Both the position numbers and the translations under genes were made by a program. Under the pieces are notes generated by a model that saw only the letters and a program-made list of their open reading frames with translations, made no database searches and had not been told where the DNA came from. A stretch of DNA of 64,000 nucleotides from Kofleriaceae bacterium (GTDB lineage: Bacteria; Myxococcota_A; Polyangia; Haliangiales; Haliangiaceae): positions 1-64,000 of the forward strand of contig JBKJLC010000297.1 in NCBI GenBank assembly GCA_046597055.1, read 5' to 3'. Positions 38,002-56,921 of this stretch are shown here, piece after piece. Within the stretch, counting starts at the first letter, position 1. Each line of letters opens with the position of its first letter.

Positions 38002-39413
38002 CCCGGGTGGACCTGCGCGGCAAGCGAGTGGTCGTGGTCGGGCTGGCGCAGACCGGCATCGCGGTCGCCAGGTTCTGTCACCGGCGCGGCGCGACCGTGG
38101 TGATGACCGACGGCAAGCCGGCCGAGCAGCTCGGCGACCGGATGGCCCAGCTCGCGGAGGTGCCGGTGGTCTGGGAGCTCGGCGGCATGCGCGAGGCCTC
38201 GTTCACCAGCGCCGATCTGGTCGTGATGTCGCCCGGGGTGCCGACCCTGCCCGAGATGGTGGCCGCGCGCGCCGCCGGGGTCGAGGTGATCGCCGAGATC
38301 GAGCTGGCCTTCCGCTGCTTCCATCCCGGCGCGCGCCTGCTCGCGATCACCGGCACCAACGGCAAGTCGACCACGACCGCGCTCACCGGCGCCCTGTGCG
38401 CGGCCAGCGGCCGGCCCAGCTTCTGCGGCGGCAACCTCGGCAACATGCCGCTGATCGACGCCGTGGACCATCCGGCCAACGTCGCCGGCGGCCTGATCGT
38501 CGCCGAGGTCGCGGCGTTCATGCTCGAGCACTGCACCTCGTTCGCGCCCGACGCTGGCATCCTGACCAACGTGACGCCCGACCACCTCGACCGGTTCGGC
38601 ACGATGGAGCGCTACGCCGAGATGAAGGGCCGGATCTGGGCGTGGCAGCCAGCCGGCGCCGTCGCGATCGCCAACGCGGCCGACCCGTGGGTGGTCGCCG
38701 CGACGCCCGGGATCGCCGCCGAGCTGTTGTGGTTCGACTCGCGGCCGGGCGCCGCGGTCGCGCGCGGTGCCTGTCTGTCCGAAGGCCGGACAGATATGGT
38801 GCTGCGCGGCGTGCCCGGGGCCGACGCCGAGGAGCGCTACCCGGTGGAGGATCTGGTGATCATCGGCAATCACAACCTCGAGAACGCGATGGGCGCCTAC
38901 CTGGCGGCCCGCTCGGTCGGGGTGTCGGTCGCCGCGATCCGCGCGGGCGCCCGCAGCTACCGGCCGCTGCCGCACCGGATGGAGCGGGTCGGCGACCTGG
39001 ACGGCCTGCACTTCTACGATGACTCCAAGGGCACCAACGTCGCCTCGGTCGCGGCCTCGGTGCGCGGCTTCCCGCGCCCGCTGGTGCTGATCGCGGGCGG
39101 GGTCGACAAGGGCGGCTCGTACGCACCGATGCTCGAGGCGCTCGACGGCGTGTGCAAGGGCATCGTGCTGATCGGCGCGGCGGCGCCGCTGATCCGCGCC
39201 GCGTGCGAGGCCCACCCGGTGCGCTACCCGGTGCTCGACGCGCGCGACATGTTCGACGCGGTCGCCAAGGCCAGCGCGCTGGCCGGGTCCGGCGAGGCCG
39301 TGGTGCTGTCGCCGGCATGCGCGAGCTACGACATGTTCGACAACTTCGGCCACCGCGGCCGGGTCTTCCGCGACGCGGTCAGCGCGGTCGGCGCGCGCCG
39401 CCTCGACGGCTGA
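37998..39413 (+). CDS. murD: UDP-MurNAc-L-Ala:D-Glu ligase
   Basis: [51 protein letters not shown] overlap with mraY. Confidence 0.96.
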
Positions 39414-39574
39414 CGCCAGGTCGTCATCGACCGCGCCGACAAGCGGGTGATCGTGCGCCGGCGCGCGCTGCACACCCCGCTGGTCGGGGCGACCGGGTGG
39501 GCGTTGCGGCACCGCCGGCAGCACTTACCCACGCCTGACGGCGCGCGCCCGCGCCGGCGCGTATCACGGGAGGC

Positions 39575-41071
39575 ATGAAGCTCGCCTCGCTGGCCTCCTC
39601 GCTCCCGTTCGTCCTGTTCGCCGCCTGCTCGAGCGTCGCGGCCTCGGGGCCGGTCCCCGCCGCGGCGGCGCGGTCGGCCGGCCCGGTGGTCGCACCGGTC
39701 GCGGCCCTGGTCGCGAGCGCCGGCGATATCACCGGGGCCCCGGGGGCGAGCCTCGACGACGCCGCGATCGCCCGGCTGCGCGCCGAGGGCCCGCCCGCGC
39801 TGGCCCGCCTGCTGGCCGAATCCGACCGGCTGGCCGGGGAGCCGGCGCGCCAGGCCCTGGCCGCGACCATCGATCGGGTCGCCGGCCAGCGCTACGCGAC
39901 CGAGTCGCGGCTGTACTGGTACACCGACCTCGAGGCGGCCAAGGCGGTGGCGCGCGCGACCGGCAAGCCGATCCTGTCGCTCCGCATGCTGGGTCGGCTC
40001 GACCAGGACCTGTCGTGCGCCAACAGCCGGTTGTTCCGGACCACGCTGTACCCGGACGCGGCGGTGAGCCAGCTCCTGCGCGCGCAGTTCGTCTTGCACT
40101 GGTCGAGTGAGCGGCTGGTGCCCAAGGTGACGATCGACTTCGGCGACGGCCGCCGCATCGAGTCGACCGTGACCGGCAACAGCGCGCACTACGTGCTCGA
40201 TGCCGACGGCGCGCCGCTCGAGGTCCTGCCCGGGCTGTACGCGGCGCCGGTGTTCGTCCGCGAGCTCGCGGCGGCGCGCGTCCTGCACGCCTCGCTGCGC
40301 GGCAAGGACGCGACCACGCGGACCCGCGTGCTGTTGGCGCATCATCGCGCAGCGGTCAATCGGCTCGAGGGGCAGTGGGACCAGCTCGGCAAGGTGCCGG
40401 TGATCGAGGGTGGGCGCAGGCTGCTGACGCCAGCGGGCGTTGCCGACGTGCTCGCGCTCGCCCAGCGCGCCACCTTTTCGAAGGCGTACATCGAGGTTCC
40501 GCTGCTGAAGACGGTCGACGTCGGCGCCGATCCGGGCGCGCTGCCTCGCGACGTGGCGCTGTGGGCGGAGATCGGCCAGCGCCTGCTCGGGGTCGGCGAT
40601 CCTCCGGCGATGCCGCCCGGCGGCTTCGACCTGACGGGTTTGGGGCTGGCGGCGAACCAGGTCGCCCCCGGTGCCACCGCGCGCGTCCCGACGCGGAGCC
40701 GGCGCCGTCCGATCCTCGACCGGTCGGCGCGGACGCTGGTGGAGCGCCTGATGGTCACCCCGGCTCCCGACGATCTCCTGAGCGACGAGGCCGCCGCGCG
40801 AGCGCTGGTGATCGCGCGGCTCGAGCAGACGATCCTCGCCGACACCGCGCTCAACGAGGTCCGCCTGCGGCCGCTGATCCGCCAGCACCTGATCAACCAG
40901 CTCGAGACCTACGGCACGCTCGGCTTCGACGACGTCAACCGCTGGATCTACGACGTGGTGTTTCACACCCCGCGCGAGGACGCGTGGCTCGGGCTGGTGT
41001 CGAGCGACACCTTCACCGGCCTGCCCGCGGGTGGGATCGTGGCCGCGCAGAACGGACGGACACGCCTGTAG
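39575..41071 (+). CDS. Hypothetical lipoprotein with thioredoxin-like segment
   Basis: Lipobox FAAC; LYWYTDLEAAKAVARATGKPILSLRMLG..SCANSR resembles the start of a thioredoxin-7-like fold with a single Cys. Confidence 0.7.
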   Translation: MKLASLASSLPFVLFAACSSVAASGPVPAAAARSAGPVVAPVAALVASAGDITGAPGASLDDAAIARLRAEGPPALARLLAESDRLAGEPARQALAATIDRVAGQRYATESRLYWYTDLEAAKAVARATGKPILSLRMLGRLDQDLSCANSRLFRTTLYPDAAVSQLLRAQFVLHWSSERLVPKVTIDFGDGRRIESTVTGNSAHYVLDADGAPLEVLPGLYAAPVFVRELAAARVLHASLRGKDATTRTRVLLAHHRAAVNRLEGQWDQLGKVPVIEGGRRLLTPAGVADVLALAQRATFSKAYIEVPLLKTVDVGADPGALPRDVALWAEIGQRLLGVGDPPAMPPGGFDLTGLGLAANQVAPGATARVPTRSRRRPILDRSARTLVERLMVTPAPDDLLSDEAAARALVIARLEQTILADTALNEVRLRPLIRQHLINQLETYGTLGFDDVNRWIYDVVFHTPREDAWLGLVSSDTFTGLPAGGIVAAQNGRTRL

Positions 41072-41077
41072 TAGCCT
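41072..41077 (+). promoter_or_regulatory. Putative -10 element (TAGCCT) for a leaderless WGR-SWIM-thioredoxin transcript
   Basis: TAnnnT 6 nt upstream of GTG 41084, the same geometry as many other genes in the window. Confidence 0.5.
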
Positions 41078-41083
41078 GACGGC

Positions 41084-44074
41084 GTGAAGGTCATCGACCG
41101 GGCCCGCCTGGGCTTACGCGAGGGCGCCTCGGACAAGCTGTACGAGGCCGACCTGGTCGAGGTGATCGCTGGGCAGTTCGTGGTGAACTTCCGGTTCGGG
41201 CGGCGCGGCGCCGCGCTCCGCGACGGCACCAAGACCGCTGTGCCAGTGCCTGAAGGCCGGGCCCGCGCGATCTTCGCCGCGCTGGTCGCCGAGAAGTCGG
41301 CCAAGGGCTACCAGCCGGTGGGCGTCGCCACCACCGCAACGCCGAGTCCGGCCGCGGCGCCCGCGAACCCCGGCAGCACCCACCAGGCGCTGCTGCACCG
41401 GCTGTGGCAGGGTCACCGCGGCGCCGGGCCGTTGCTGCCGGTGATCCGCCGGGTCGGCGAGCTCGGCGTGCGCGACGCCGAGCCGATCTTGCTCGAGCTG
41501 CTCGCCGCCAGCCGCACCAACGCCGAGGCGCCCGACGTGATCTGGCGCTACACGATCGTCGCCGCCCTGGCGCGGTGCGGATCGAGCGCGGCGGTGCCGG
41601 CGCTCGAGCGCCTGCCCGGCGATGGCGCCCAGCCCGATCACGTGCGCGACCTCGCGCGGCTCGCGCTCGCGATGATCTGGGGCGAGGCCGGCCGCGACCG
41701 CACCCGCGCGATGGCGCGCGCGCTGGTGCCACCGACGATCGCCGGCGATCCGTACCGGGCCGGGCCGACCAGCGCGACCGCCGGGGTCGAGGACCTGCTC
41801 GCGCGGGGGCGCACCGCCCAGGCCCGCGACGCGATCATCGGGCTCTACCTGCTCGACGACAGCGCCGCGCGCGCGGCGGTGCTGTCGGCGGCGCGCGGGC
41901 TGCGGCTGGCCGGCGGCGAGTGGCCGATCGTGCGCATGCTGATCCGCGGCGCCGAGCTGCGCCGCGACGGCGAGCTGTCGGCCCTGCTCGCGCGACGGAT
42001 CGAGGATCACCGGGGCGCCACGCCGTGCGGGCCGCGCACGCGGGCGTACTTTCGACGCCGGATCGCGCGGGTGCTGCGCCGGCTCGGCCAGCAAGGCTCG
42101 CCCGACTTCGTGGCGATGGCGGTGCCGCTCCTGCTCGGGTACCGCGACGACGATGCCGGCGAGGTCATCACCGGCGCGTACGGCGCGACCTACGACCGGT
42201 TCGCGCGTTTTCACGCGCTCAACATGCTGCTGTACGCGCGGTCGTCGCGCTACCAGCCCGGCCACCACGGCGCCGCGACCTGGCGGTGCGCCCCGTCCTA
42301 CCGGCCCGGCGGCCCGCCGCCGCGCGACCGCGAGGAGGCGTTCGGGCCGCTGTGGGACGCCGCGCCCGAGGCGCTGTGGCACCTGGTCCGCGCCGCTCGC
42401 GCCGAGCCGGTGGTGTACTTCGCGACCCGCGCGCTGCGCGACCAGCGCGGGTTCGTCGCCGCGCTCACCGATGGCGCGCTGGCCGCGGTGCTCGCCGACG
42501 GCCACCCGCTGGCCCAGCGGTTCGCGTTCGAGGCGGTGCGCGAGCGTCCGCTCACGGCCGAGCTGGCCCGCGCCGCGCTGGCCAGCTCGGTGGACGACGC
42601 CCACGACTGGGTGCTGGCCTGGGTCGAGCGCCACCCGGACCTGGCGATCGCCGACCCCGCGCTGGTCGCCCTCCTGATCACCGGCCCGTCGACGCGGGTG
42701 CGCGACGGCGGAGTGGCGTTGGTCCGCGGGCGCGGGCTCACCGACGAGGTCGCGCGCAGCGCCGCGACCCGGGCCCTGGCGATCCTGCTCGGGCTGTCCG
42801 ACACCCCCGAGGCCGCGGCGCGCGCCGCCGGCGCGGTCGCCGTGCTGCTGCGCGTGCTGGGCGCGCCGCTGCGCCGGCTGGGCGCTGACGTGCTGCGCGA
42901 TCTGATCGAACATCCGCTGGCCGCGCTCGGCGAGCTCGCCGGCGAGCTCATCCTCGCGCACGAGCAGGCGGCGGGGCTCCCGACCGACCTCGCCACCCAC
43001 CTGCTGGCCTCGCCGCACCCGTCGGTGCGCGCGCTCGGCGCCCGGGTGCTGGCCCAGACCCCGCCCGAGGTCGCCAAGGGCGATCCCGACGCCCTGGTGA
43101 CCTTCGCGCTGTCCGGAAACGCCGAGCTGCGCGCCGGCACCCGCGCGCTGATCGGCGAGGTCGCCCGCCGCTGGCCCGAGGTCGGCCGCGCGATCGCCGA
43201 CCTCCTGATCGACGCCCTCTTGACCGCCCAGCCCGCGGGCGCGCCGGCCCACGTGATCGCGCTGCTCCGCCACGAGCTCGCCGGGTGCCTGCCCGCGCGC
43301 GACGCGACCACCATCCTGCGCCTGTGCGGCGCGCTGTCGCCGCACGCGCGCGACGCGGGCGGCCTGCTCCTGCCCCAGCTCGGACCCGACGAGCTCGGCC
43401 TCGACGATCTGGTGCGACTCGCCAGCCACGAGTCGGTGCTGGTGCGGCAGGGCGCGTGGGCGCTGGCGGAGCAGGCCACGCCGCGGTGGAAGCTGGCCCC
43501 GGTCGCGCTGGCGCGCCTGTGCGACGCCAGCTGGGACGACAGCCGCGCCTTCGCGTTCGGCTTCGTGCGGCGCAGCTTCGACGCCGACGATCTCGCCCCC
43601 GACGCGATCATCGCGATGTGCGACAGCGTCCGACCCGCGGTCCAGGATTTCGGCAAGTCGCTGCTGCAAGAACACTTCCGCGGCGCGCACGCGGCGACCT
43701 ACCTGATCCGCCTCGGCGAGCACCCGGCGCCGGGCGTGCAGCTGCTGGTGTCGACCTTGCTCGACGCCGCGCGCGGCGATCTGGCCCGCCTGCAGGCCCT
43801 GCTGCCGTACCTCTACACCGTGCTCGGCCAGGTCAACCGCGGCGGCGTGGCCAAGCAGCGCGTGCTCGCGTTCGTGCGCGCCGAGGCGACCGCGAGCGCG
43901 GCGTCGGCCCGGCTGCTGGCCCCGCTGCTCGATCACCAGTCGGCGACGATCGCGATCACCCAGAAGGCGCCGCTGATCGCGACCATGGTCGCGGTTCACG
44001 ACGCGTATCCCGACGTCCCGCTGCCGATCGCGATCACGCCCGCGCGTCCGCACCGACCGGGCGGCCCGACGTGA
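41084..44074 (+). CDS. Retron-associated WGR-domain + ARM/HEAT-repeat protein (996 aa)
   Basis: N-terminal EGASDKLYEADL...VVNFRFGRRG...LVAEKSAKGY (WGR-like); the remainder is Leu/Ala-rich helical repeats; upstream of SWIM, ncRNA and RT. Confidence 0.82.
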   Translation: MKVIDRARLGLREGASDKLYEADLVEVIAGQFVVNFRFGRRGAALRDGTKTAVPVPEGRARAIFAALVAEKSAKGYQPVGVATTATPSPAAAPANPGSTHQALLHRLWQGHRGAGPLLPVIRRVGELGVRDAEPILLELLAASRTNAEAPDVIWRYTIVAALARCGSSAAVPALERLPGDGAQPDHVRDLARLALAMIWGEAGRDRTRAMARALVPPTIAGDPYRAGPTSATAGVEDLLARGRTAQARDAIIGLYLLDDSAARAAVLSAARGLRLAGGEWPIVRMLIRGAELRRDGELSALLARRIEDHRGATPCGPRTRAYFRRRIARVLRRLGQQGSPDFVAMAVPLLLGYRDDDAGEVITGAYGATYDRFARFHALNMLLYARSSRYQPGHHGAATWRCAPSYRPGGPPPRDREEAFGPLWDAAPEALWHLVRAARAEPVVYFATRALRDQRGFVAALTDGALAAVLADGHPLAQRFAFEAVRERPLTAELARAALASSVDDAHDWVLAWVERHPDLAIADPALVALLITGPSTRVRDGGVALVRGRGLTDEVARSAATRALAILLGLSDTPEAAARAAGAVAVLLRVLGAPLRRLGADVLRDLIEHPLAALGELAGELILAHEQAAGLPTDLATHLLASPHPSVRALGARVLAQTPPEVAKGDPDALVTFALSGNAELRAGTRALIGEVARRWPEVGRAIADLLIDALLTAQPAGAPAHVIALLRHELAGCLPARDATTILRLCGALSPHARDAGGLLLPQLGPDELGLDDLVRLASHESVLVRQGAWALAEQATPRWKLAPVALARLCDASWDDSRAFAFGFVRRSFDADDLAPDAIIAMCDSVRPAVQDFGKSLLQEHFRGAHAATYLIRLGEHPAPGVQLLVSTLLDAARGDLARLQALLPYLYTVLGQVNRGGVAKQRVLAFVRAEATASAASARLLAPLLDHQSATIAITQKAPLIATMVAVHDAYPDVPLPIAITPARPHRPGGPT

Positions 44075-46137
44075 TCTTCCAGCACCGCTACGCCGGGACC
44101 TCGACGGTGCGCCAGGCCGACGACGCGACCGCGATGTCGTTCGCACCCGACCTCCTGCGTGCGCCGACCTACTTCCGCGGCCGGGTCACCCGCGCGCTCG
44201 AGTTTCGCGAGGCGATGAGCGCGCTGCACGACGTGGTGGTGGCCGACCTGCGCTTCGTGCCCAGGGACCGCACGTCGTACCTGGCGTGGCGCGAGCGCCA
44301 GGCTCACGTCGCGCCCGGCGCCGCGGCCGCGCAGCAGGCCGAGGTCGCGGCCGAGATGGCCCGGCTCGGCGCCGAGTTGACCGAGCTCGATCGCAAGCGC
44401 GCGGACCGCCACCGCGCCTTCCACGGCGCGCGCCAGCGCTACTTCGACTACCTCTACCAGCGCGACCGCGACCTGTGGTTCAAGCTCGATCCGATCATCA
44501 CGGTCCACCCCGACCAGGTGTTCTTCGAGTGCTTCTCGCGCGACGAGTCGAGCTACGGCCGGCTGGCCGCCTCGTACGACGTCTTCGACCAGCTCGGCGA
44601 GCGGGCCAACGGCACCACCAACATCGACTACTCGCAGGGCCTGTACGACGAGTTCCAGAAGGTCCGCAGCTACAAGACGACCACGCTCGACATCGATCCG
44701 TCGGGCTTCGGCGTGGAGACCGCGCTGGAAGAGCGCTTCCGCGAGGTGAAGATCGACGTGCCCGACAGCTGGGTGCGCGGGCTGCTCCAGGTGTCGAGCG
44801 CGATGACGCTGCCGACCCACGTCGTCGATCTGCACCCGATGGACGTCCACAACCTTTGCTTCGTGCTGCGCCGCAACCAGGAGCGGTTCGGGCCCCGCTC
44901 GCTGCGCTGGCAGCTCACGCCGGGCGCGCCGGCGACGGTCGTGGTCGAGCCGTGGGGCATCGAGCTCCGCTGCCCGCGCTCGATCTACCGGGGCGATCAG
45001 CCGGCCGAGATCCGCATGTGGGGCCGGCGCCGGCTCCACGTGCTCGAGCGGCTGCTGCCGCGCGCCCGCCGGGTCCGGCTGCACCTGCTCGGCACCGGCC
45101 AGCCCACGTTCTGGGTGGTCGATCTCGGCGCGCTGACGTTCACGCTCGGCCTGTCGGGCTGGACCCGCAACGACTGGGCCCAGGCCAGCAACTTCGACTT
45201 GATGGCGGCGCGCGAGGACGTCGACCTCGACACCCAGGAGCGCGTGTTTGCTGCGCTCGGCAAGCACTGGCGCGCGAGCCCCGACACGCTGGCGAGCGAG
45301 CTGAACCTGAGCCGACCGATCGTCGCGTCGGCGCTGGCCGGCTGGGTCCAGTGCGGCCGCGCGGTCTACGACCTCGATCAGGGCGTCTATCGCAAGCGCG
45401 AGCTGACCGGCGCGCCGCTGCCGGTCGAGCGGCTGCGCTACGCCAGCGCCCGCGAGGCCGCCGCCGGCCAGCTGGTCCAGCAGGCCAAGATCGCGGTCGA
45501 CGACGCCAGCACGGCCGATGGCGGCCTGCGCCTGGTCGGTCGGCTGATGCACCGCGACCGGCTGTTCACCACCGAGCTCGTGCTCGACGTCGACCGGCGG
45601 CTGGTCGCCGGCGAGTGCAGCTGCGACCACTTCGTCCGCAACCGGCTGCTCCGCGGCCCGTGCGAGCACATGCTGGCCCTGCGCGCGGCCCACCGCCGCG
45701 GCGTGTCCGATCTGATCGACCTCGGCGACTACCAGGCGACGTGCCGCCAGGCGGTGGCGCACGCGACCACGCTGCGCGCCGGCGACCCCGCCGCCGCGGT
45801 GCGCGCGCTCACCCGCGCCGCGAAGCTGGTGCCAGCCGGCTCGCCCGAGTGGGCGCGCCTCCAGGAGGTGCTGGCCGAGACCCACCTCGCCGCCGGCGAC
45901 CGGGCCACGGCACTGGCAGCCGCCGAGCGCGCGCTGCGCGTGGCGCCGACCAGCCCGCTCGCGTTGCGCATCCAGCGCGCGCTGCAGGTCGATCCGGCGG
46001 CCAGCGCGCCACCCGCCGCCCCTGCCGCGGACGAGCCGGTGGCCGCGCCGGAGCCGCCGAAGAAGCCCGGCTTCTGGCGCCGCCTGGTCGGGCGGTTCGG
46101 CAGCAAGAAACCCCCGCCCACCGACGAGTCGGCATGA
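44071..46137 (+). CDS. Retron-associated SWIM Zn-finger protein with C-terminal TPR-like extension (688 aa)
   Basis: GTG 44071 overlaps the WGR stop (GTGA); LDPIITVHPDQVFFECFSRDESSY, GTTNIDYS, SWVRGLLQV, LGLSGWTRNDW; SWIM CSC-x12-CEH at 45616-45669. Confidence 0.85.
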   Translation: MIFQHRYAGTSTVRQADDATAMSFAPDLLRAPTYFRGRVTRALEFREAMSALHDVVVADLRFVPRDRTSYLAWRERQAHVAPGAAAAQQAEVAAEMARLGAELTELDRKRADRHRAFHGARQRYFDYLYQRDRDLWFKLDPIITVHPDQVFFECFSRDESSYGRLAASYDVFDQLGERANGTTNIDYSQGLYDEFQKVRSYKTTTLDIDPSGFGVETALEERFREVKIDVPDSWVRGLLQVSSAMTLPTHVVDLHPMDVHNLCFVLRRNQERFGPRSLRWQLTPGAPATVVVEPWGIELRCPRSIYRGDQPAEIRMWGRRRLHVLERLLPRARRVRLHLLGTGQPTFWVVDLGALTFTLGLSGWTRNDWAQASNFDLMAAREDVDLDTQERVFAALGKHWRASPDTLASELNLSRPIVASALAGWVQCGRAVYDLDQGVYRKRELTGAPLPVERLRYASAREAAAGQLVQQAKIAVDDASTADGGLRLVGRLMHRDRLFTTELVLDVDRRLVAGECSCDHFVRNRLLRGPCEHMLALRAAHRRGVSDLIDLGDYQATCRQAVAHATTLRAGDPAAAVRALTRAAKLVPAGSPEWARLQEVLAETHLAAGDRATALAAAERALRVAPTSPLALRIQRALQVDPAASAPPAAPAADEPVAAPEPPKKPGFWRRLVGRFGSKKPPPTDESA

Positions 46138-46616
46138 CGCCGCACCTGCGCGGCGCGGTGATCGCCCTCGTGCTGCTCGGCGCCGGGTGTCGCGACCGAG
46201 AGGTCACCCCGGCGGGGGCCGGCAAGGTCGAGCTGATCGAGGCGCCGGCCGCGATCGCGCTCGCGCCGGTGGTCGCCGGCGAGGTAGTCCGCGCCCGCGC
46301 CGACGGCAAGCAGCTGATCGTCTACGTCGGCGCCGCGTGGTGCGAGCCCTGCAAGTACTTCCACGACGCGGTGACGCGTGGCGAGCTCGACGCCGGGTTC
46401 CCGACCCTGCGGCTGCTCGCGTTCGACGCCGACCGCGATCAGGACGCGCTGCAGGCGGCGGGCTACGACGCGTCGATGATTCCGCTGTTCGCGGTCCCGG
46501 CTGCCGACGGCACCCCCAGCGCGCAGCGGATGCAGGGCTCGATCAAGGGCCCCGGCGCGGTCGCCGAGATCACGCCGCGGCTGCGCGCGCTGCTCGCGGC
46601 CGCCGCCGCCCGCTGA
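46134..46616 (+). CDS. Thioredoxin-family lipoprotein (WCEPC)
   Basis: ATGA overlap with the SWIM gene; lipobox GAGC; VYVGAAWCEPC; cis-Pro motif MIPLF. Confidence 0.85.
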   Translation: MTPHLRGAVIALVLLGAGCRDREVTPAGAGKVELIEAPAAIALAPVVAGEVVRARADGKQLIVYVGAAWCEPCKYFHDAVTRGELDAGFPTLRLLAFDADRDQDALQAAGYDASMIPLFAVPAADGTPSAQRMQGSIKGPGAVAEITPRLRALLAAAAAR

Positions 46617-46630
46617 CCGGCGGCGAGGCC

Positions 46631-46660
46631 TTGCGCCGGCCCGGCGCGCTGGCTGATAGT
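46631..46660 (+). promoter_or_regulatory. Putative sigma70-type promoter of the retron ncRNA-RT unit
   Basis: TTGCGC (46631-36), 18-nt spacer, GATAGT (46655-60); a 6-nt gap places +1 at about G46667, the start of the 5' inverted repeat. Confidence 0.55.
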
Positions 46661-46665
46661 CGCGC

Positions 46666-46897
46666 CGCGTGGTGGGTGTGCCTCGTGACCTTGCAACCCG
46701 GGCGGCGTTTCGCCGCTCTTGCGATCACGCCATGCATGCCTCACTGGCTCGCTCAATACTGTGTGAAATCAGTGCCGTCGCACAGGTTCCGGCTGGGATC
46801 CCCTGCGGGAATCGAACGCAGCGCGACGGCACCGATTTCACTCGAGCCGAGACGATCCAGTCCCAGGAGTGAACGAAGGTAGGCGGCCCACCACGCG
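46666..46897 (+). ncRNA. Retron msr-msd non-coding RNA
   Basis: Perfect 11-bp terminal inverted repeats CGCGTGGTGGG (46666-76) / CCCACCACGCG (46887-97); candidate branch G46678; msr stem-loop at 46684-46729; 18/19-bp msd hairpin arms 46763-81 / 46823-41; directly upstream of the retron RT. Confidence 0.85.
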
Positions 46898-46921
46898 CCT
46901 TTTTCCGCTGACCTCATCCTC

Positions 46922-48328
46922 GTGCCCGACGACGCCCCCCCGCGCAATCGCAAGGAGCTGTACGAGCGCATCGCGCGCGGCGGCAAGGACGAGGTGATCG
47001 TCGAGGAGATGATCCGGCTCGGCTTCTGGCCGGCGGCCGGCGCCCTGCCTGACGATCCGGCCGACGAGCTGCGCCGACGCAGCGAGCTGGTCGGTCGGCT
47101 CGTCACGCTGCGCGACCAGGCCGGCCGGCTGCGCAATGCCGCGCAGCTCGAGCAGGACGCACGCGCCCAGCGGCTCGCCGACGCGCGGCGCAAGCGCGAG
47201 GAGACCAAGCAGCGCCGGCTCGCGATCCGCGCGGCCCGTCAGGTCGCGTGGCGCGAGCGCAAGACCCGCGAGATCGGCTACCTCGGCGCCGGCGTCTCGG
47301 CCGGGCTGGGCCCCGCGCGGCCGGGCACACCGGTGGCAACCCCGGGCCCCGAGCTCCCGGTCCTGCATACCGCCGCTGATCTCGCGGCGGCGATGCAGAT
47401 CACCGTGGGCCAGCTCCGGTTCCTGGCGTTCGCCCGCGAGGTTTCGACCACCACCCACTACCGCCGCTTCACGATCCCCAAGCGCACCGGCGGCGAGCGC
47501 CTGATCTCGGCGCCCCGCGCGCGGCTGAAGGACGCGCAGCGCTGGATCCTCGCCAACGTACTCGAGCGGGTGGCGCTGGCCGAGCCGGCCCACGGCTTCG
47601 TCCGCGGCCGCTCGATCGTGACCAACGCGGTGCCCCACGTCGGCGCCGCGGTGGTCGTCAACGTCGACCTCAAGGACTTCTTCCCGACCGTCACCTACCG
47701 CCGGGTCAAGGGCCTGTTCCGCCGGCTCGGCTACGGCGAAGAGATCGCCACCCTGCTCGGCCTCCTGTGCACCGAGCCCGACGTGACCGAGACCGTGCTC
47801 GACGGCATCACCTACTACGTCGCGCGCTCGGCCCGGCACCTGCCGCAGGGCGCGCCGACCAGCCCGGCGATCACCAACGTCATGTGCCGGCGCCTCGATC
47901 GGCGCCTCGCCGGCTGCGCCGCCAAACATGGCTTCACGTACACCCGCTACGCCGACGACCTGACGCTGTCGAGCAAGGACGCCGCGGCCCCGGTCGGTGC
48001 CGTGCTCGCGATCATCCACAAGGTCGCGGTCGGCGAGGGCTGGACCGTGCATCCCGACAAGGTCCGCGTGCTGCGCAAGGGCCGCCGCCAGGAGGTCACC
48101 GGCGTGATCGTCAACGAGCGCCCCGGCATCGCGCGCACCACCCTGCGCCGGTTTCGCGCGCTGCTCCACCAGATCGAGCGCGACGGCCCCGCCGGCAAGC
48201 GCTGGGGCGCCGCCGGCGACGTGTTCGTGTCGGCGCTCGGCTTCGCCAGCTACGTGGCGATGGTCGATCCGGCCCGCGGCGCCGCCCTGCGCGCCCAGGT
48301 CCTCGCCCTGCGCGCGCGCCACCGCTGA
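46922..48328 (+). CDS. Retron-type reverse transcriptase with ~150-aa N-terminal extension
   Basis: YRRFTIPKRTGGERLISAP, AHGF...SIVTNAVPH (region X NAxxH), DLKDFFPT, LPQGAPTSP, YTRYADDL, QEVTGVIVN (region Y VTG); no maturase or endonuclease domain. Confidence 0.95.
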   Translation: MPDDAPPRNRKELYERIARGGKDEVIVEEMIRLGFWPAAGALPDDPADELRRRSELVGRLVTLRDQAGRLRNAAQLEQDARAQRLADARRKREETKQRRLAIRAARQVAWRERKTREIGYLGAGVSAGLGPARPGTPVATPGPELPVLHTAADLAAAMQITVGQLRFLAFAREVSTTTHYRRFTIPKRTGGERLISAPRARLKDAQRWILANVLERVALAEPAHGFVRGRSIVTNAVPHVGAAVVVNVDLKDFFPTVTYRRVKGLFRRLGYGEEIATLLGLLCTEPDVTETVLDGITYYVARSARHLPQGAPTSPAITNVMCRRLDRRLAGCAAKHGFTYTRYADDLTLSSKDAAAPVGAVLAIIHKVAVGEGWTVHPDKVRVLRKGRRQEVTGVIVNERPGIARTTLRRFRALLHQIERDGPAGKRWGAAGDVFVSALGFASYVAMVDPARGAALRAQVLALRARHR

Positions 48329-48399
48329 GCTGAGCGAAGCGAGCCGGCTCCGCTCCGTACCGATCGGGCCCGGGCTCCGGCCCGCGGCCGACCGATCGA
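48326..48399 (+). repeat. ~75-nt structured repeat, copy B (copy A at 2100..2174)
   Basis: Starts at the RT stop codon; hairpin CGGGC-TCCG-GCCCG shows a compensatory change relative to copy A. Confidence 0.8.
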
Positions 48400-48523
48400 G
48401 CTACGCCCACCCGATGGCCGGGCCATCGGCGCCATCCCATGCTCGCCCGGGTGCGCCGCCGGCGCTGGACCGTGGTCCGAGGCCACCGGCGGCGGTGAGC
48501 ACCCGCGATGCTACGCTTCCGGC

Positions 48524-49297
48524 ATGGACCCGATCGACGCGCGCCATACCCGTCGCGACACGCTCGCGGTCGTCTTGACCGTGCTCGGCGGCGCGGCCTG
48601 GCTGAGCGCCCCGGTCGCCCTGCTGCTGCGCGACCTGCGGCTAATCCTGCCGGTGTGCACCATCGCCGGCTGCGCGATCGGCGCCGCCTGTGTCGCGTCG
48701 CTCGTGCCCCGCCTGTCCCGCACCACCGCGGCGGTGGCCGGCGCGATCACCCACCTGCTCGCCCGCGGCATCTTGATCCTGTGGGCCCTGGTGCCCGGCG
48801 GCGCGCTTCGCCCCGAGGATCTGCTGATCGCCCTGGCCGCGGCCGGCGCCGCCGCGGCCGGCGCCAGCGTGGGTGGCCGCGCCCCGCGTGGCCTGACCCT
48901 GCTGCTGGTGGCCGGGATGGTGTCGCTGGCGGTCGCCACCCTGGGCGCGGTGCTGCTCGGCGTGCTCCACCTGCTCGGGGGGGAAGCGCCCCTGCTGGGG
49001 ACGTTCGGCTTCCTGCTGGCGCCGGTGGCCGGCGGGGTGGTGGCGGCCGCGTTGTTCCCGGAGATCAGCGCGGGCAAGGTGGCCGGCGGCTGGCTGGTGC
49101 TCGGCCTCGGGACCGCGGCCGTGGTCGCCGTCATCGCGCAGTCGGGCTTCTTCTTCGTCAGCGGCCTGCTCGCCGGCATTGTCCTGGGCGTGATGCCGGC
49201 CGGCCTGGGCGCGATCGGGGCCGGCGTGTACCGGACCCTGCGCCCGCGGCCGCCGGTCGACGTCACCCCGCTGCCGTCGGCGCGCGTGCTTCGCTGA
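48524..49297 (+). CDS. Hypothetical multi-pass membrane protein
   Basis: About 7-8 hydrophobic segments; TACGCT lies 6 nt upstream of the ATG. Confidence 0.7.
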   Translation: MDPIDARHTRRDTLAVVLTVLGGAAWLSAPVALLLRDLRLILPVCTIAGCAIGAACVASLVPRLSRTTAAVAGAITHLLARGILILWALVPGGALRPEDLLIALAAAGAAAAGASVGGRAPRGLTLLLVAGMVSLAVATLGAVLLGVLHLLGGEAPLLGTFGFLLAPVAGGVVAAALFPEISAGKVAGGWLVLGLGTAAVVAVIAQSGFFFVSGLLAGIVLGVMPAGLGAIGAGVYRTLRPRPPVDVTPLPSARVLR

Positions 49298-49363
49298 CCC
49301 GCCGCGCGACCACCCGGCCGAAAAGTTGGCCCGGATCGAGAGCGTAGGCAGAGTGCGGGGGTA

Positions 49364-50626
49364 GTGCTCCCGTCGAGCATCCAGCCCACCATCGAACCTC
49401 CGAGCGACCGTCCCGCGCCCAGCGTCGCCACCCAGGCGCCGGTCGCCGAGGTCGCGGAGCGCCCCTACGACCTCCTGCTGCTCGGCACGGTCCTCGCGCT
49501 CCTCACGCTCGGCACGATCGAGATCTACGCCGCCACCGCCAGCCAGGCCGGCGCCCGCCGCGGCGACCCCGGCTTCTTCCTCGAGCGCCAGCTGGTGTTC
49601 CTCGTCCTCGGCGGCGTGGCCATGTGGCTCGGCGCGATCATGGACTACCGGGTGCTGCGCCGGCGCGCCTACCTCTTGCTGCTCGGCTCGCTGCTCGCGC
49701 TCGCCGCGACCCTGGCCATGCCGTCCCTCAACGGCGCCCGCCGCTGGCTCCTGGTCGGCCCGCTCTCGTTCCAGCCGGTGGAGATCGCCAAGCTCGCGCT
49801 GATCAGCTACCTCGCCTACTCGCTGTCCAAGAAGGCCGAGAAGGTGAAGACCTTCACGGTCGGCTTCGTGCCTCACCTGGTGGTGTGCTGCCTGATGATG
49901 GGCCTCTTGCTGCTGCAGCCCGATCTGGGCTCGTCGATCATCCTGGGCGCGACCACCCTGGTGATGCTGTTCGTCGCCGGCGCCCGCATCTCGTACATCG
50001 TCCTGGCGATGCTCGCGGGCGCGCCGATCGCCTACCAGCTCATCGTGGGCACCCCGTGGCGGCTCCGGCGCTTCATGGCCTACTTCAACCCCGAGGCCTT
50101 CGGCGACCGCGAGGCCTACCAGATGGTGCAGGCCCACGTATCGCTCGGCTCGGGCGGCGCCACCGGCGTGGGCCTGGGCAACTCGCGCCAGTCGCTCGGC
50201 TACATGCCCGAGGGCCACAACGACTTCATCCTGGCCCCGATCGGCGAGGAGCTCGGCTTCCTTGGCGTCGCCCTGGTGCTGGGCCTGTTCATGGTCCTCA
50301 TCTGGCGCGGCGTGCGCGCCGCCCTCGGCGCCCGCGATCCCTTCGGCGGCTACGTCGCCCTCGGCATCACGCTCATGTTCGGCCTCCAGGCCCTGCTCAA
50401 CGTCGGCGTCGTCCTGGGCGTGGTCCCCAACAAGGGCATCACCCTGCCGCTGGTCAGCTACGGCGGCACCTCGCTGATCGTCACCATGTTCCTGGTCGGC
50501 CTGATCCTCAACATCGGCCACCGCGCCGCCCCCGGCTCCCGCCGCCGCATCCTCGGCGGCCTTGGCGGCGCCCTGCGCAAGCCCCAGCGCGTCCGCGTCG
50601 TCGTCGGCCGCCCCGCCAACGCCTGA
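49364..50626 (+). CDS. ftsW: SEDS peptidoglycan glycosyltransferase FtsW
   Basis: NGARRW, FQPVEIAK, QPDLGS, PEGHNDFI, EELG, GITLPLVSYGGTS. Confidence 0.96.
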   Translation: MLPSSIQPTIEPPSDRPAPSVATQAPVAEVAERPYDLLLLGTVLALLTLGTIEIYAATASQAGARRGDPGFFLERQLVFLVLGGVAMWLGAIMDYRVLRRRAYLLLLGSLLALAATLAMPSLNGARRWLLVGPLSFQPVEIAKLALISYLAYSLSKKAEKVKTFTVGFVPHLVVCCLMMGLLLLQPDLGSSIILGATTLVMLFVAGARISYIVLAMLAGAPIAYQLIVGTPWRLRRFMAYFNPEAFGDREAYQMVQAHVSLGSGGATGVGLGNSRQSLGYMPEGHNDFILAPIGEELGFLGVALVLGLFMVLIWRGVRAALGARDPFGGYVALGITLMFGLQALLNVGVVLGVVPNKGITLPLVSYGGTSLIVTMFLVGLILNIGHRAAPGSRRRILGGLGGALRKPQRVRVVVGRPANA

Positions 50627-50693
50627 GCCCGGCGCCGGTTCGCGCCGGCGCTCCGCTGCGTCCGGCCAGCCGACGCGGTGGTACGTCCGACGC

Positions 50694-51500
50694 TCAGGTC
50701 GCGACGTCCCGCGCGGCCGCTACCGACGAACAGAACGCGGCGAGCAAGGCCTGCCCCTCGTCGCCCCCCTGCTCGTGCGCGATAGCCACCAGATCGGCGC
50801 CCAGCCCGTGCCGCCAGCCGGCGTCTTGGTGCCACCAATCAGCGGCACCCGTCGCCGCCGGGGGCGCGAACGGGAATGCACCACGAGACATCAAGACGAG
50901 GCTCGCCCCGGCATGAAGGGCAACCAGGAACTCCTGCCTCGCGGACGTGGGCGGTTCGAGCTCGGTCAGGTCAGACACCTCGCCGAGGAGCGGATCCCCC
51001 AATAGCCCCCACGATGTTTGGGTCAGGTCGACACCCATTCGCCGTAGTGCACCGAACCGGAGGTCTTCGGACAGAAGCCGAACCTCGCCATCACGAGCAA
51101 GCGCCACGCCATTGGGACCCGCGCGCCAGACGGCGAGGACGCCGGTGGCGAGTGCCACCACCGCCATCACGGACGGCGTGGCTCGCTCCAACAATACAGC
51201 CTCGAACTGCCGCCAGACTTCGGCTCGCAGCGACGCGAGCACCGCGCCAGCCTCGCGTTTCTCGTCCTCCAGGTCCAGGAGCTGGTCGACCGCGCGATCC
51301 AGAATGTCTCGAGCGCGGTGCTCAGCAACGCCTGCCGAAAGCGAGAGGGCCACAAGCAGCCGGCCGCGAGCACTGACCACCGTGGGCTGATGGAGATGCG
51401 TGAGCAGCCCCGGCACTGCCGGGACTCCCACATGGCCGAATCGAAACCCACCTTGGAGGCAGTGCCATGTGAAACCTGGCCTGCACGGCAGACTCGTCAT
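50694..51500 (-). CDS. Hypothetical protein, remote PP2C-like fold without catalytic Asp residues
   Basis: LAVWRAGPNGVALARDGEVRLLSED and ALHAGASLVLMSRG echo the PP2C GDSR and SDG motifs; codon usage is atypical. Confidence 0.45.
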   Translation of the reverse strand: MTSLPCRPGFTWHCLQGGFRFGHVGVPAVPGLLTHLHQPTVVSARGRLLVALSLSAGVAEHRARDILDRAVDQLLDLEDEKREAGAVLASLRAEVWRQFEAVLLERATPSVMAVVALATGVLAVWRAGPNGVALARDGEVRLLSEDLRFGALRRMGVDLTQTSWGLLGDPLLGEVSDLTELEPPTSARQEFLVALHAGASLVLMSRGAFPFAPPAATGAADWWHQDAGWRHGLGADLVAIAHEQGGDEGQALLAAFCSSVAAARDVAT

Positions 51501-51609
51501 TTGCTTCCTCCAGCTCGCCAGCGGAGAGCGACGCCCGGGGACGACCTCACCGGGAACCGCTGCGGCTGCAGCCGCGCCAGCTGAGGACGCCGCGGCCGAT
51601 CTGTTGTTC

Positions 51610-51666
51610 GTGAAACACGGTGAAACACCTCTGGACAGCGTGAAACATTCGATACCGAGCTGAAAC
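51610..51666. promoter_or_regulatory. Phased direct repeats TGAAAC x4 (putative regulator binding array)
   Basis: TGAAAC starts at 51611, 51621, 51641 and 51661 in the divergent intergenic region. Confidence 0.55.
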
Positions 51667-51735
51667 GATCACCGCCTGGGAATTCAACCACAACGGCAAC
51701 CTGCGGGCGGCACGACCAATGCAGTCAGGGTGTGA

Positions 51736-52155
51736 ATGGCACTCGCGTTTCTCACCCCGCTCGCGGGCGGGGCCCTCATCGGCGTCGCAGCCTCGCTGCT
51801 GCTGATCTCATCGGGCCGGGTCGCCGGCATCAGCGGCATCCTTGGTGAGCTGATCGGCGTCTCGGTCGACCGCGGGTGGCGCGCCGCGTTCGTGCTCGGG
51901 ATGCTGGTGACCGGGGTGATCGCCACGGTCCTGTGGCCGCAGGCGATCACCGCGTCGCCGGCGTCCGTGCCGGTGCTGGTGATCGCCGGCCTGCTGGTCG
52001 GGTTCGGCACCCGCCTCGGCGGCGGCTGCACCAGTGGCCATGGCGTGTGCGGGCTGTCGCGGCGGTCGCCGCGGGCGCTGGTCGCGACCCTGACGTTCAT
52101 GGCCGCCGGCGTCGCCACCGTGGCGATCGTCCGCGCGGTCGGAGGTGGCTCGTGA
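51736..52155 (+). CDS. YeeE/YedE family sulfur-compound transporter subunit
   Basis: [35 protein letters not shown]. Confidence 0.9.
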
Positions 52156-52604
52156 CGGCGGCCGGCTCGCCCGCGGTGCGGCTCGCGATCGCCGCGGTCG
52201 CGGGCGTGCTGTTCGCGCTCGGGCTCCTGCTCGCGGGCATGACCCAGCCGACCAAGGTGATCGGCTTCCTCGATATCACCGGCGACTGGGACCCGAGCCT
52301 GGCGTTCGTCATGATGGGCGCGATCGGCGTCCACCTGATCGCCTACTGGCTGATCCGCGGCCGCGCCGCGCCGCTGTTCGACGCGAAGTTCCACCTCCCG
52401 ACCCGCCGCGACCTCGACCGGCGCCTGATCGCGGGCGCCGCGATCTTCGGCGTCGGCTGGGGCCTCGCGGGCTACTGCCCGGGGCCCGCGGTGGTCTCGG
52501 TGGCAGCCGGCGGCCCGACCCTCGCGTTCTTCGCGGCGATGCTGGTCGGCATCGTCGCCCAGCGCGTGCTCGACCGGCCCACCGCCCGCGGCGAGGTCGT
52601 ATGA
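52152..52604 (+). CDS. YeeE/YedE (DUF6691-like) family membrane protein
   Basis: [38 protein letters not shown] overlap. Confidence 0.88.
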
Positions 52605-53500
52605 GCGCCACGCCCGCGATCGAAGCGTTCTTCGACCGGGTCACCTCGTCGGTGACGTACGTCGTCCATGCCGGCCACGACGCGGTCGTGATCGACCCGG
52701 TGCTCGACTACGACCCGCAGGCGTCACAGACGTCGACCGCGTCGGTCGAGGTGGTCGGCCACTTCCTGCGCGCGCGCGACCTGCAGCTCCACTACGTGCT
52801 CGAGACCCATCCTCACGCCGATCACCTGTCGGCCTCGCAGTGGCTCAAGCGCCGCCACGGGGCCCGGGTCGCGATCGGCGCCGGGATCCGCCACGTGCAG
52901 GCGGTGTTCGCCGACCTGCTCGACCTCGGCCCGGACTTCCGCACCGACGGCAGCCAGTTCGACCGGCTGCTGGTCGACGGCGAGGTCGTCACCGCCGGCG
53001 CGCTGGAGCTCGCGGTGCTGGCCACGCCCGGCCACACCCCGGCGTGCGTGTCGTACCGGATCGGCGACGCGATCTTCGTCGGCGACGCGCTGTTCTTGCC
53101 CGACTACGGCACCGCGCGCTGCGACTTCCCCAGCGGCGACGCCGACGTCCTCTACACGTCGATCCACGACCGGCTGTACACGCTGCCCGACGACACCCGC
53201 GTGTTCGTCGGCCACGACTACCAGCCCGGCGGCCGCGAAGTCGGCTGGATGACGACGATCGGCGCGTCGCGCCAGGGCAACGTGCAGCTGCACGCGGGCA
53301 CCGCCCGCGACGCGTTCGTGCGCCTGCGCCGCGACCGCGACCGAACGCTCGCCGCGCCCCGCCTGCTGTACCCGAGCATCCAGGTCAACGTGAACGCCGG
53401 GCTCCTGCCCGCGCCGGGCGCCGGCGGCCGCCGCTACCTGTCGATCCCGCTCAACCTGTCGCAGCCGACCGAGGACGACGGCAGCCCGGTGCGCCGTTGA
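52601..53500 (+). CDS. MBL-fold persulfide dioxygenase (ETHE1/Blh-like)
   Basis: [49 protein letters not shown]. Confidence 0.9.
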
Positions 53501-54240
53501 CCGCCGTGGTGCTCGCGCTCGCGGTCCTGGTCGGCATCGCCCTCGGCCTGCTCGGCGGCGGCGGCTCGATCCTGACCATCCCGATCCTGACCTACGTGGC
53601 CGGGCTCGAGGCCAAGGTTGCGATCGCGACCTCGCTGTTCGTGGTCGCGGTCACCAGCAGCGTCGGCGCGGCCTCGCACGCGCGCGCCGGCCGGGTCCGC
53701 TGGCGCACCGGCCTGATGTTCGGCGCCGGCGGCATGGCCGGCGCCCACGCCGGCGGTCGCCTGGCGGGGTACCTGCCCGCCGACCTGCTGCTGAGCCTGT
53801 TCGCGGTCATGATGGCGGTCAGCGCGATCGCGATGCTGCGCGGCCGGCGCGCGATGGTCACGACCCTCACCGGCGATCGGCCTGGCCTCAAGCTGGTACT
53901 GCAGGGAAGTGCGGTCGGCGTGGTCACCGGCCTGGTCGGCGCCGGCGGTGGATTCGTGATCGTCCCGGCGCTGGTCATCCTGGGGCGGCTGCCCATGAAG
54001 GACGCGGTCGGGACCTCGCTGCTCGTGATCGCGATGAACGCTGTCTCCGGCCTCACCGGCTACCTCGGCCACGTCGACATCGACTGGCCGCTGGCGCTCT
54101 CGGTCACCGCGGCCGCGGTCGCCGGCAGCCTGGTCGGCACCCGCCTGGCCAGCCGGGTGCCGCAGGAGTCGCTGCGCCTCGGGTTCGGCTGGTTCGTGAT
54201 GGCGATGGCGGCGTTCATCCTCATCAAGCAGCTGGCCTGA
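53497..54240 (+). CDS. Sulfite exporter TauE/SafE family protein
   Basis: GLLGGGGSILTIP, AIATSL, GLVGAGGGFVIVP, AVGTSL; TTGA overlap. Confidence 0.9.
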   Translation: MTAVVLALAVLVGIALGLLGGGGSILTIPILTYVAGLEAKVAIATSLFVVAVTSSVGAASHARAGRVRWRTGLMFGAGGMAGAHAGGRLAGYLPADLLLSLFAVMMAVSAIAMLRGRRAMVTTLTGDRPGLKLVLQGSAVGVVTGLVGAGGGFVIVPALVILGRLPMKDAVGTSLLVIAMNAVSGLTGYLGHVDIDWPLALSVTAAAVAGSLVGTRLASRVPQESLRLGFGWFVMAMAAFILIKQLA

Positions 54241-54354
54241 CCGGCGACGCCCCGGCGGGTCCCCGAAGGCGCCCCGACGGCGCCGGCGAGGGCGGTCGTT
54301 GACAAGGCTGGCGACCGAGGCGGAGACTGCGCGTCCCCGCCTCGAGGTCACTCC

Positions 54355-54930
54355 ATGCATCATCGCATCGCCGCTGTCGCGCTCTCGTTCGTTGCCGTGG
54401 TCGGCTGTGACGCCGGCCCCAAGCCCACTCCGATCGGGACCGGGAAGGTGGCCGCAGCCGCCCCCGCCGCCTCGACCGCGCCGACCACGACCCCGGGCGT
54501 GCCGGCCCCGACTGCGGCGACCGGCGCGCGCTTCGGCGCTGGCGTCACGCTGGCCACCTCGATGCCGATCGACCTGCTGCTCGCCGATCCCAAGGCGCAC
54601 GTCGGCAAGTCGGTGCGGGTCGAGGGCCTGATCGTCGACGTGTGCCCCAAGCGGGGCTGCTGGATGGACCTCGCGGGCGCCGGCCCCGGCCAGAAGCTGC
54701 GCTTCAAGGTCACCGACGGCGACATGGTGTTTCCGGTCGACGCCAAGGGCAAGTACGCGGTCGTCGAGGGCGTGGTCGCGGTCAACGAGCTCACGCTCGA
54801 GCAGACCAAGGAGTACGTCGCGTACCAGGCCCGCGAGTACGGCGCCGCGATGGATCCCGCCGCGGTGACCGCTCCGATGTCGATCGTGCGGCTCGACGGG
54901 ACCGGCGCGATGCTGCGCGACGCGCGCTAG
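54355..54930 (+). CDS. DUF4920-like lipoprotein
   Basis: Lipobox VVGC; VRVEG.IVDVCPKRGCWMDL OB-fold motif. Confidence 0.75.
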   Translation: MHHRIAAVALSFVAVVGCDAGPKPTPIGTGKVAAAAPAASTAPTTTPGVPAPTAATGARFGAGVTLATSMPIDLLLADPKAHVGKSVRVEGLIVDVCPKRGCWMDLAGAGPGQKLRFKVTDGDMVFPVDAKGKYAVVEGVVAVNELTLEQTKEYVAYQAREYGAAMDPAAVTAPMSIVRLDGTGAMLRDAR

Positions 54931-54932
54931 CG

Positions 54933-55490: not shown

Positions 55491-55511
55491 CAGTGACGGG
55501 CGCCGCTGCGC

Positions 55512-56720: not shown

Positions 56721-56921
56721 CGGCTCACGTTGCGGCCGGCGCGGTCCGCGCGCACCTCGAAACTGTGGCATCGGGCGGCGGGTCGCGGCGCTGCGTGCCG
56801 TCCCCACGGACCGACCTCGCAGCCCGGCGGTGGGCGCGGCCCGACCGACCGCCGCGCGGGTGGCGCCGACCGCCCCGCCAGAAACAAGCGTCGCCGTCGC
56901 AGCTGCGCTAGCGTGCGGGCC

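Follow-up and report, generated by a model that had tools for sequence, protein, structure and literature searches.

A type XIII retron msr-msd RNA gene in a Kofleriaceae bacterium and a family-based prediction of its branching guanosine

The window analysed here, 64,000 nucleotides of a Kofleriaceae bacterium contig (JBKJLC010000297.1, assembly GCA_046597055.1), carries a structured RNA at 46666–46897 that is preceded by two genes of retron partner proteins and followed by a reverse transcriptase gene. The protein-coding genes around the RNA are as follows.

41084..44074, + strand, WGR_XIII / HEAT-ARM partner of 996 aa (PADLOC WGR_XIII 2e-243, HEAT-ARM_XIII 3e-30)
44071..46137, + strand, SWIM_XIII partner (PADLOC 5e-214), start codon placed by the GTGA overlap; predicted PCNA-like clamp fold (residues 34–364), helical winged-helix-like part, SWIM finger (516–533) and TPR-like tail
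46134..46616, + strand, thioredoxin-like (CEPC) probable lipoprotein between the SWIM gene and the RNA (Pfam Thioredoxin_7 2.5e-5, below cut-off)
46922..48328, + strand, retron reverse transcriptase of 468 aa, type XIII / clade 10, with an N-terminal extension

The reverse transcriptase (RT) matched the PADLOC model RT_XIII at 7e-174 (577 bits), the next model following at 2e-101 (338 bits), and carried the NAxxH (NAVPH, 235), YADD (343) and VTG (392) motifs of retron RTs. It gave a Pfam RVT_1 match of 5e-22, the genome containing no second one; its GTG start was consistent with the N-termini of its homologues, and its best PDB match was 7v9u (Retron-Eco1; E 2e-44). Upstream, a gene with WGR and HEAT/ARM parts lay 5′ of the SWIM gene, as is characteristic of type XIII, and the SWIM protein contained the CxCx12CxH finger at 516. 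A slightly widened form of the Dx7Dx4Ex30-32Dx37E pattern was present from D140 in the SWIM protein of the window and in 54 of 55 homologues. Among the best 80 of 201 related RT loci, many of which end early, a SWIM homologue was found in 64, a WGR homologue in 45 and the thioredoxin-like gene in none; this last gene is probably a passenger. Taken together, the locus very likely represents an intact type XIII retron of WGR-ARM, SWIM, RNA and RT, of which 46666–46897 is the msr-msd RNA gene.

The surrounding region is a cell-division cluster (mraY-murD, ftsW and a murG-like gene; window 39413–57995) that is interrupted twice: before ftsW by a 498-aa ORF, the retron and a membrane protein, and after ftsW by a segment of about 6 kb that includes YeeE/TsuA-like and sulfur-dioxygenase-like MBL genes. 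The window also holds one tRNA-Tyr gene (6235–6334, minus strand), distant from the retron.

Folded as RNA, 46660–46900 reached –121.5 kcal/mol (z –4.92; none of 200 shuffles equally stable), and the minus strand of 46735–46890 folded as DNA gave a z of –5.36 (none of 200 shuffles). The window held no second hairpin of 19 bp with one mismatch or none, while 11-bp arms alone were common, 35 such 11-mers having a partner 150–300 nt away. The proposal made in a sequence-only reading of this DNA, that a retron msr-msd RNA lies here, is borne out by these fold z-scores, the RT_XIII context and the homologous RNAs described below, and we regard the identity of the RNA as confirmed. That reading had called the RNA unannotated, which agrees with the absence of any Rfam match at the gathering level in the window (three chance matches at E up to 10) and of the published type XIII ncRNA models from Rfam; consensus structures of type XIII ncRNAs have, however, been published (Mestre et al. 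2020, PMC7736814). The features of the RNA are:

46666..46683, + strand, outer part of the a1 arm: perfect arm 46666–46677, bulged G46678 and continuation 46679–46683 (pair probability 0.92–1.0)
46688..46692, + strand, inner part of the a1 arm, ACCUU, pairing with AAGGU at 46876–46880
46693, + strand, priming and branching guanosine in CUUGC, predicted from conservation
46700..46718, + strand, msr hairpin of 8 bp (46700–46707 / 46711–46718) with a UUU loop
46730..46742, + strand, conserved linker CAUGC..CAC (C46735, A46736, C46739 and C46742 conserved in 51–57 of 57 copies)
46743..46861, + strand, msd long stem: lower helix 46743–46754 / 46849–46861, conserved internal loop 46755–46762 / 46842–46848, upper helix 46763–46781 / 46823–46841, apical part to about 46810
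46874..46897, + strand, predicted template start C46874, opposing G46875 and a2 arm 46876–46897
46730..46874, – strand, predicted msDNA of about 135–145 nt, 5′ end templated by C46874 and 3′ end near 46730–46740

An iterated nucleotide profile search recovered RNA homologues, some of them partial, at 55 of the best 80 of the 201 related RT loci, spread over seven phyla. Fifty-eight full-length copies were kept, that of the window included, and 50 of these entered the sequence-only alignment A1 (median identity to the window copy 49%), from which seven near-duplicates (L007, L008, L012, L022, L026, L039 and L048) and the second copy of L033 were excluded. An unbiased MI-APC scan over 25,878 column pairs placed the msd registers 46743–46754 / 46849–46861 and 46763–46789 / 46814–46841, together with the 8-bp msr hairpin, at the top, most of the top pairs falling in the register of the msd long stem. 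The lower msd helix was 92.5% paired, with double-sided changes in 8 of its 11 pairs, and the upper helix showed them in 19 of 19. Within the msr hairpin 99% of cells were paired and 4 of the 8 pairs had double-sided changes; C46694–G46721, the pair below it, was invariant in 50 of 50 copies. The apical msd pair 46797/46813, part of a conserved CGG motif outside the main helix register, covaried strongly as well (46 of 50 paired, MI-APC rank 2).

Covariation was thus present among the homologues. Scored on A1, the revised structure was 83.8% paired with a covariation of 0.490, as opposed to 0.08–0.18 for slid controls. The earlier structure scored 68.4% and 0.387, its outer arms being penalised by poor alignment; as the revised structure was derived from the same sequences, this comparison leans its way. 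All sequence elements that the sequence-only reading had named were found, namely the arms 46666–46676 / 46887–46897 with U46677–G46886, the msr motifs at 46684, 46691, 46702, 46711, 46719 and 46725, the msd arms 46763–46781 / 46823–46841 with A46771–C46833 as their single mismatch, and GGCTCG at 46746 and CGAGCC at 46843. The msr stem built from those motifs stood in part: its central hairpin has 8 bp rather than 6, and its CGUGA/UCACG helix lacks covariation, being paired in 11–26 of 50 copies per position and absent from the top 45 MI-APC pairs. Likewise absent from these pairs was GGCUCG/CGAGCC, which showed a single double-sided change in 300 cells and competes with a covarying ACUGG/CCAGU helix for G46746–G46747; as the outer pairing of the msd it is probably wrong, the msd stem being longer (46743–46861).

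The stems that close the RNA called for separate treatment. Because the freely varying outer arms were misaligned, an alignment-based count of their pairs (49%) was an artefact, and per-sequence duplex folding was used instead. By this means, in 54 of 57 copies the 5′ and 3′ arms formed a better duplex with each other than with the arms of other copies, by a mean of 14.6 kcal/mol, the arm sequence itself being free to vary. In the window copy the outer stem extended inward through 46679–46682/3 with 46881/2–46885. G46678, described earlier as the first unpaired base, is indeed unpaired, but since the terminal stem continues inward it forms a one-base bulge and does not mark the end of the stem. 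The inner stem ACCUU/AAGGU is short and nearly invariant, and therefore offers few compensatory changes; that it was only 80% paired in A1 is due to a one-column slip, which at CGAAG persisted in A2, a sequence-only model realignment.

Several variants of this arrangement were seen. In 5 loci among the best 80 of 201 (L013 105–636; L014 8075–8831, plus a partial copy at 8881–8942; L021 8401–8965; L030 8460–8935; L033 895–1531), a single RT was preceded by two or three complete tandem copies of the RNA, 67–90% identical to each other. More distant clade 10 RTs, from planctomycetes and Verrucomicrobia, are preceded by a divergent version (L059 8382–8629, L060 8167–8416, L063 8253–8501 and L077 8169–8415), in which the stem end has CTGAGAC or CTAAGAC together with GAAGTCAG or GAAGTTAG rather than CTTGC/CGAAG. 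In the Bacteroidota loci L037–L048 and L057 the genes are arranged RNA-RT-WGR-SWIM, and the RNA has one more small hairpin, placed after the branch G and ahead of the 8-bp hairpin. At L075 and L080, just upstream of position 9001, the stop of the upstream gene lies 4 nt from the RT start and leaves no room for the RNA, which must be elsewhere or absent there.

As judged from conservation, the branching guanosine is in all likelihood G46693, 15 bases downstream of the base chosen in the sequence-only reading. This base was a G in all 50 aligned copies and in all 26 clusters formed at less than 70% identity, U46691, G46693 and C46694 being invariant in A1. The column of G46678, which the sequence-only reading had taken for the branch point, held G in 26, T in 13, C in 6 and A in 5 of the same 50 copies (G in 11 of 26 clusters); that assignment is probably wrong, and we leave it only a slender chance. 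The eight held-out copies (outside training; L086 was excluded as identical to L019, and L051 was missed by that profile) all contained CTTGC and CGAAG, 175–179 nt apart, and kept the branch G. When the two ends were allowed to fold freely, the arm duplex stopped immediately 5′ of the conserved G in 43 of the 57 copies and in 6 of the 8 held-out ones; by the earlier rule, the base after the longest arm helix was a G in only 7 of 57, the window copy included. Outward from the conserved G, successive positions were paired in 54, 49, 54, 44 and 25 of 54 distinct motif-anchored copies (three skipped, one duplicate). A CG preceded the a2 arm in all anchored copies and in three hand-anchored divergent ones, although the CG, G-G and C-C counts in anchored copies are circular because the anchoring used that motif. 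The pair next to the branch G was U-A in the window copy, A-U in L049 and G-C in L053 and L056; L049 and L051 have the classical TTAGC at the branch site, and L053 and L056 have CTGGC/CGCAG.

Published features of retrons bear on the same choice. Two opposing G residues are described as such a feature in PMC7736814: G46693 faces G46875, while a G-G at 46678/46885 occurred in just 2 of 57 copies. According to PMC6868368 the priming G lies directly 3′ of a1, usually in the context TAGC, and PMC10849725 gives G as the most frequent first RT-DNA base. For Retron-Eco1, the sites reported as intolerant to substitution in PMC11257497 were the priming G and the UUU loop only; they match the places where invariance clusters in the type XIII RNA family, which counts for G46693. 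Against it stands the branch context, UUGC here versus the CAGC reported for Mx162 and Sa163 and the GAGC reported for Mx65. The chief result against G46693 is the fold of the window copy alone, in which the family fold costs 2.6 kcal/mol relative to the msr fold of the sequence-only reading: G46678 was unpaired at a probability of 0.99, G46693 was paired at 0.99, and the inner stem reached 0.02.

These energies might in turn indicate that the priming site has shifted in the window copy, with G46678 branching opposite G46885 and an msDNA from about 46884 to 46740. Indeed, both the minimum-energy fold and the ensemble of the single sequence have G46678 free and G46693 inside the CGUGA..UUGCAA stem, the G opposite G46678 is preceded by a C, and the window copy is among the seven with a G after the longest arm helix. 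However, besides the poor conservation of the position (26 of 50), in the six closest copies the matching base is either A or a G that is itself base-paired within the arm, and G46678 is followed by a U, whereas a C follows most of the listed priming Gs. Moreover, the window copy retains the family signature at 46689–46695 and 46874–46879, which would be free to drift if it were unused. We consider a shifted priming site highly improbable and retain G46693 as the predicted branching base.

With G46693 directly after ACCUU/AAGGU and opposite G46875, reverse transcription would be expected to start at C46874 and to yield an msDNA of about 135–145 nt, which as DNA folded with a z of –5.04 (none of 200 shuffles). 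The size given by the sequence-only reading was thus about right, and its start at 46885 is probably wrong, C46874 being predicted from the branch geometry. The linker 46730–46742 is the probable zone of RT stop and RNA:DNA hybrid; its part 46735–46742 lies 42–49 nt after G46693, which, compared with the stop of Eco2 52 nt after its G (PMC12916289), suggests the same length.

Strand bias in the msd concerns another claim, that its A-C mismatch, being G-T on the reverse-transcribed strand, favours folding as DNA. This argument holds across the family: isolated mismatches on the RNA strand of 50 distinct msd regions comprised 53 A-C and 13 G-U (22 copies versus 6, with 22 ties), counts that come from non-independent relatives, with many of the A-C contributed by the six Kofleriaceae-like copies. 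The reverse strand folded better in 44 of 50 msd regions with DNA energies and in 26 of 50 with RNA energies, and the msr hairpin showed the reversed bias (66 G-U and 2 A-C among 400 cells). The pattern points to selection on the msd for folding of its reverse-transcribed strand.

Public sequencing runs contained the RNA as well. Run X1, whose RNA label is a guess, gave a 164-nt contig over 46706–46869 without differences, and run X2, a metatranscriptome, a 188-nt contig over 46684–46869 with two differences; the runs come from two studies, with small word shares of 0.07 and 0.05. The contigs are shallow (depth 3–4) and may be DNA, and they show presence rather than ends or strand. The two share an end, 46869, stopping 5 bases before the predicted msDNA start and 15 before that of the sequence-only reading; this is a weak hint of an msDNA end. 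In a speculative and unlikely reading, 46869 would be the mature 5′ end, the msDNA having lost five bases next to the branch in the manner of Eco4. Since, in addition, the X2 contig reaches 9 nt upstream of G46693, the contigs fit either branch model. The RT gene was not covered in X1 or X2, which says nothing on expression levels. X2 also carries the RNA of a relative with a different msd (joint 46765–46853).

The energy difference of 2.6 kcal/mol in favour of the alternative msr fold could also mean that the RNA of the window copy is trapped in its locus-specific CGUGA/UCACG fold and is inactive or poorly active. An unrelated gene does stand between the RNA and the SWIM gene, and a promoter and terminator scan returned neither, including no sigma-70-like promoter (a T5 run at 46900–46904, after the a1/a2 stem, was not scored as a terminator). 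However, the three retron genes are open with intact catalytic motifs, near-identical sequence occurs in the RNA-labelled runs of the two studies, and the window RNA, which is single-copy in the genome, scored 118.7 bits on the family model, mid-range for a copy that belonged to the training set. An inactive copy is therefore, in our view, very unlikely.

In comparison with the published type XIII retrons of RT clade 10 (PMC7736814), the cassette shares the N-terminally extended RT with NAxxH, YADD and VTG, the SWIM/DEDE and WGR-HEAT/ARM partners and the RNA beside the RT, and differs in the thioredoxin-like gene between SWIM gene and RNA and in the TPR-like tail of its SWIM protein. Myxobacterial clade 10 RTs with a similarly extended N-terminus are known from Retron-Nex2 (Ne144), Mxa1 (Mx162), Mxa2 (Mx65) and Sau1 (Sa163). 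The name Ne144 implies an msDNA of 144 nt, close to the predicted 135–145 nt; neither RNA sequences nor mapped RT-DNA ends of Ne144, Mx65 and the census retrons turned up in the supplementary material searched. RNA subclasses have been distinguished (XIIIA firmi, B Ne144, C Mx162, Mx65), and one 2026 survey counted 143 more type XIII retrons. Production of RT-DNA in E. coli is reported for clade 10 retrons, which are among the best RT-DNA producers, and the RT-DNA of the type XIII retron Mestre-1673 (Chitinophaga eiseniae) is made and stays branched, according to a preprint (Khan et al., PMC10849725). Since the Chitinophaga loci L024 and L026 carry the same RNA family as the window, Mestre-1673 probably has a window-type RNA, so that a member of this family has probably been tested. 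With Retron-Eco1 (Ec86) the RNA shares an 8-bp stem with a UUU loop, which is bound by region Y of the Eco1 RT (PMC6868368), and a priming G right after a1. By analogy, the 8-bp UUU hairpin is a probable RT recognition element here. Eco1 differs in its clade and effector and in its shorter msDNA; most copies of the type XIII family have one msr hairpin and a far longer msd than Eco1.

In retrons generally, the RT primes at the 2′-OH of a guanosine and stops before the msr. For the window copy, the RNA ends would pair in a bulged stem closed by ACCUU/AAGGU, and the RT would bind the 8-bp UUU hairpin and prime from the 2′-OH of G46693. Synthesis would begin on C46874 and proceed to about 46730–46740, and RNase H would remove the template, with priming chemistry, start, stop and removal all modelled on other retrons. 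The product would be a branched msDNA of about 135–145 nt in the shape of a single long rod, interrupted by the conserved internal loop.

An AlphaFold model of SWIM residues 1–550 (pLDDT 79.5) bears on what this msDNA might serve. Its residues 34–364 matched PCNA with a Foldseek E of 2.6e-9 (VIA Z 21.4, rmsd 2.8, 234 of 244 residues, 10% identity), which suggests a two-domain PCNA-like clamp fold with a helical insertion, a shared fold that by itself shows no function. The published DEDE pattern falls inside this predicted fold, in contrast to the transposase fold suggested for it in PMC7736814. A PDB sequence search with the SWIM profile returned nothing below E 0.08, and our literature search did not find a clamp fold of the type XIII SWIM protein in print. 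The TPR-like C-terminal tail was found on the SWIM proteins of a Kofleriaceae-like group (9 of the best 80 of 201 loci); the protein has 688 aa here (tail at window 45700–46137) versus 841–845 aa, with a longer tail, in relatives (L001 6190–8727; L004 6222–8747). One might speculate that the PCNA-like domain rings or clamps the msDNA rod and reads the internal loop 46755–46762 / 46842–46848, the msDNA acting as a decoy of a replication or repair intermediate that is disturbed by phage clamp-loading or DNA-processing proteins, but we consider this mechanism unlikely.

The biological role of the retron is itself a prediction by analogy. We lean slightly towards defence, in which the RT-msDNA complex would serve as a DNA decoy or sensor that restrains the WGR-ARM protein and the clamp-fold SWIM protein until a phage interferes with it and a growth-arresting activity is released; a functional or defence test of a type XIII retron was not found in the literature searched. 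The same RNA and msDNA might alternatively belong to a domesticated DNA-metabolism or stress module, with the PCNA-like protein and the WGR scaffold using the msDNA as a ligand or regulator. The predicted clamp fold supports such a reading, domain searches recognised no toxin-like enzyme domain in the partner proteins, and a moderate correlation of type XIII with host 16S has been reported (PMC7736814). In addition, all four cyanobacterial genomes examined (G031, G032 and G033, with L050, L052, L054 and L110–L112; G034, with L055 and L116) retain RT, RNA and SWIM gene split over separate contigs. Three of these have SWIM gene and RNA on one contig and a single RT on another, and one has RNA and RT apart from the SWIM gene; the assemblies are drafts, though the flanks hold unrelated genes. 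However, 5 of the 30 relatives had a close RT (57–60%), the cassette is an insertion upstream of ftsW, the 498-aa ORF directly preceding ftsW in 4 of 10 same-genus loci (1.5-kb flanks only), and phyla are mixed on the RT tree, a quick tree without any named clade 10 RT on which the RT of the window groups with Kofleriaceae-like bins (99% SH-aLRT). This patchiness, the insertion and the mixed phyla fit a mobile defence cassette, so that a domesticated module seems possible but doubtful. A plasmid search found a full-length relative in 1 of 26 plasmid records, unannotated, and a phage search gave no full-length match.

Type XIII is the oldest known retron type. The retron RNA of the window is real but ordinary, type XIII retrons and their RNAs having been described before. 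If the family model holds, the msr fold obtained by folding the window copy alone is the wrong one, and mutations of G46678 would probably affect no more than a neutral bulge. For a clade that produces RT-DNA strongly, the corrected map predicts branching at G46693, a start at 46874 and an editable msd at 46763–46841. Independently of the window copy, the predicted clamp fold of the SWIM partner may offer a testable lead on the function of type XIII retrons.
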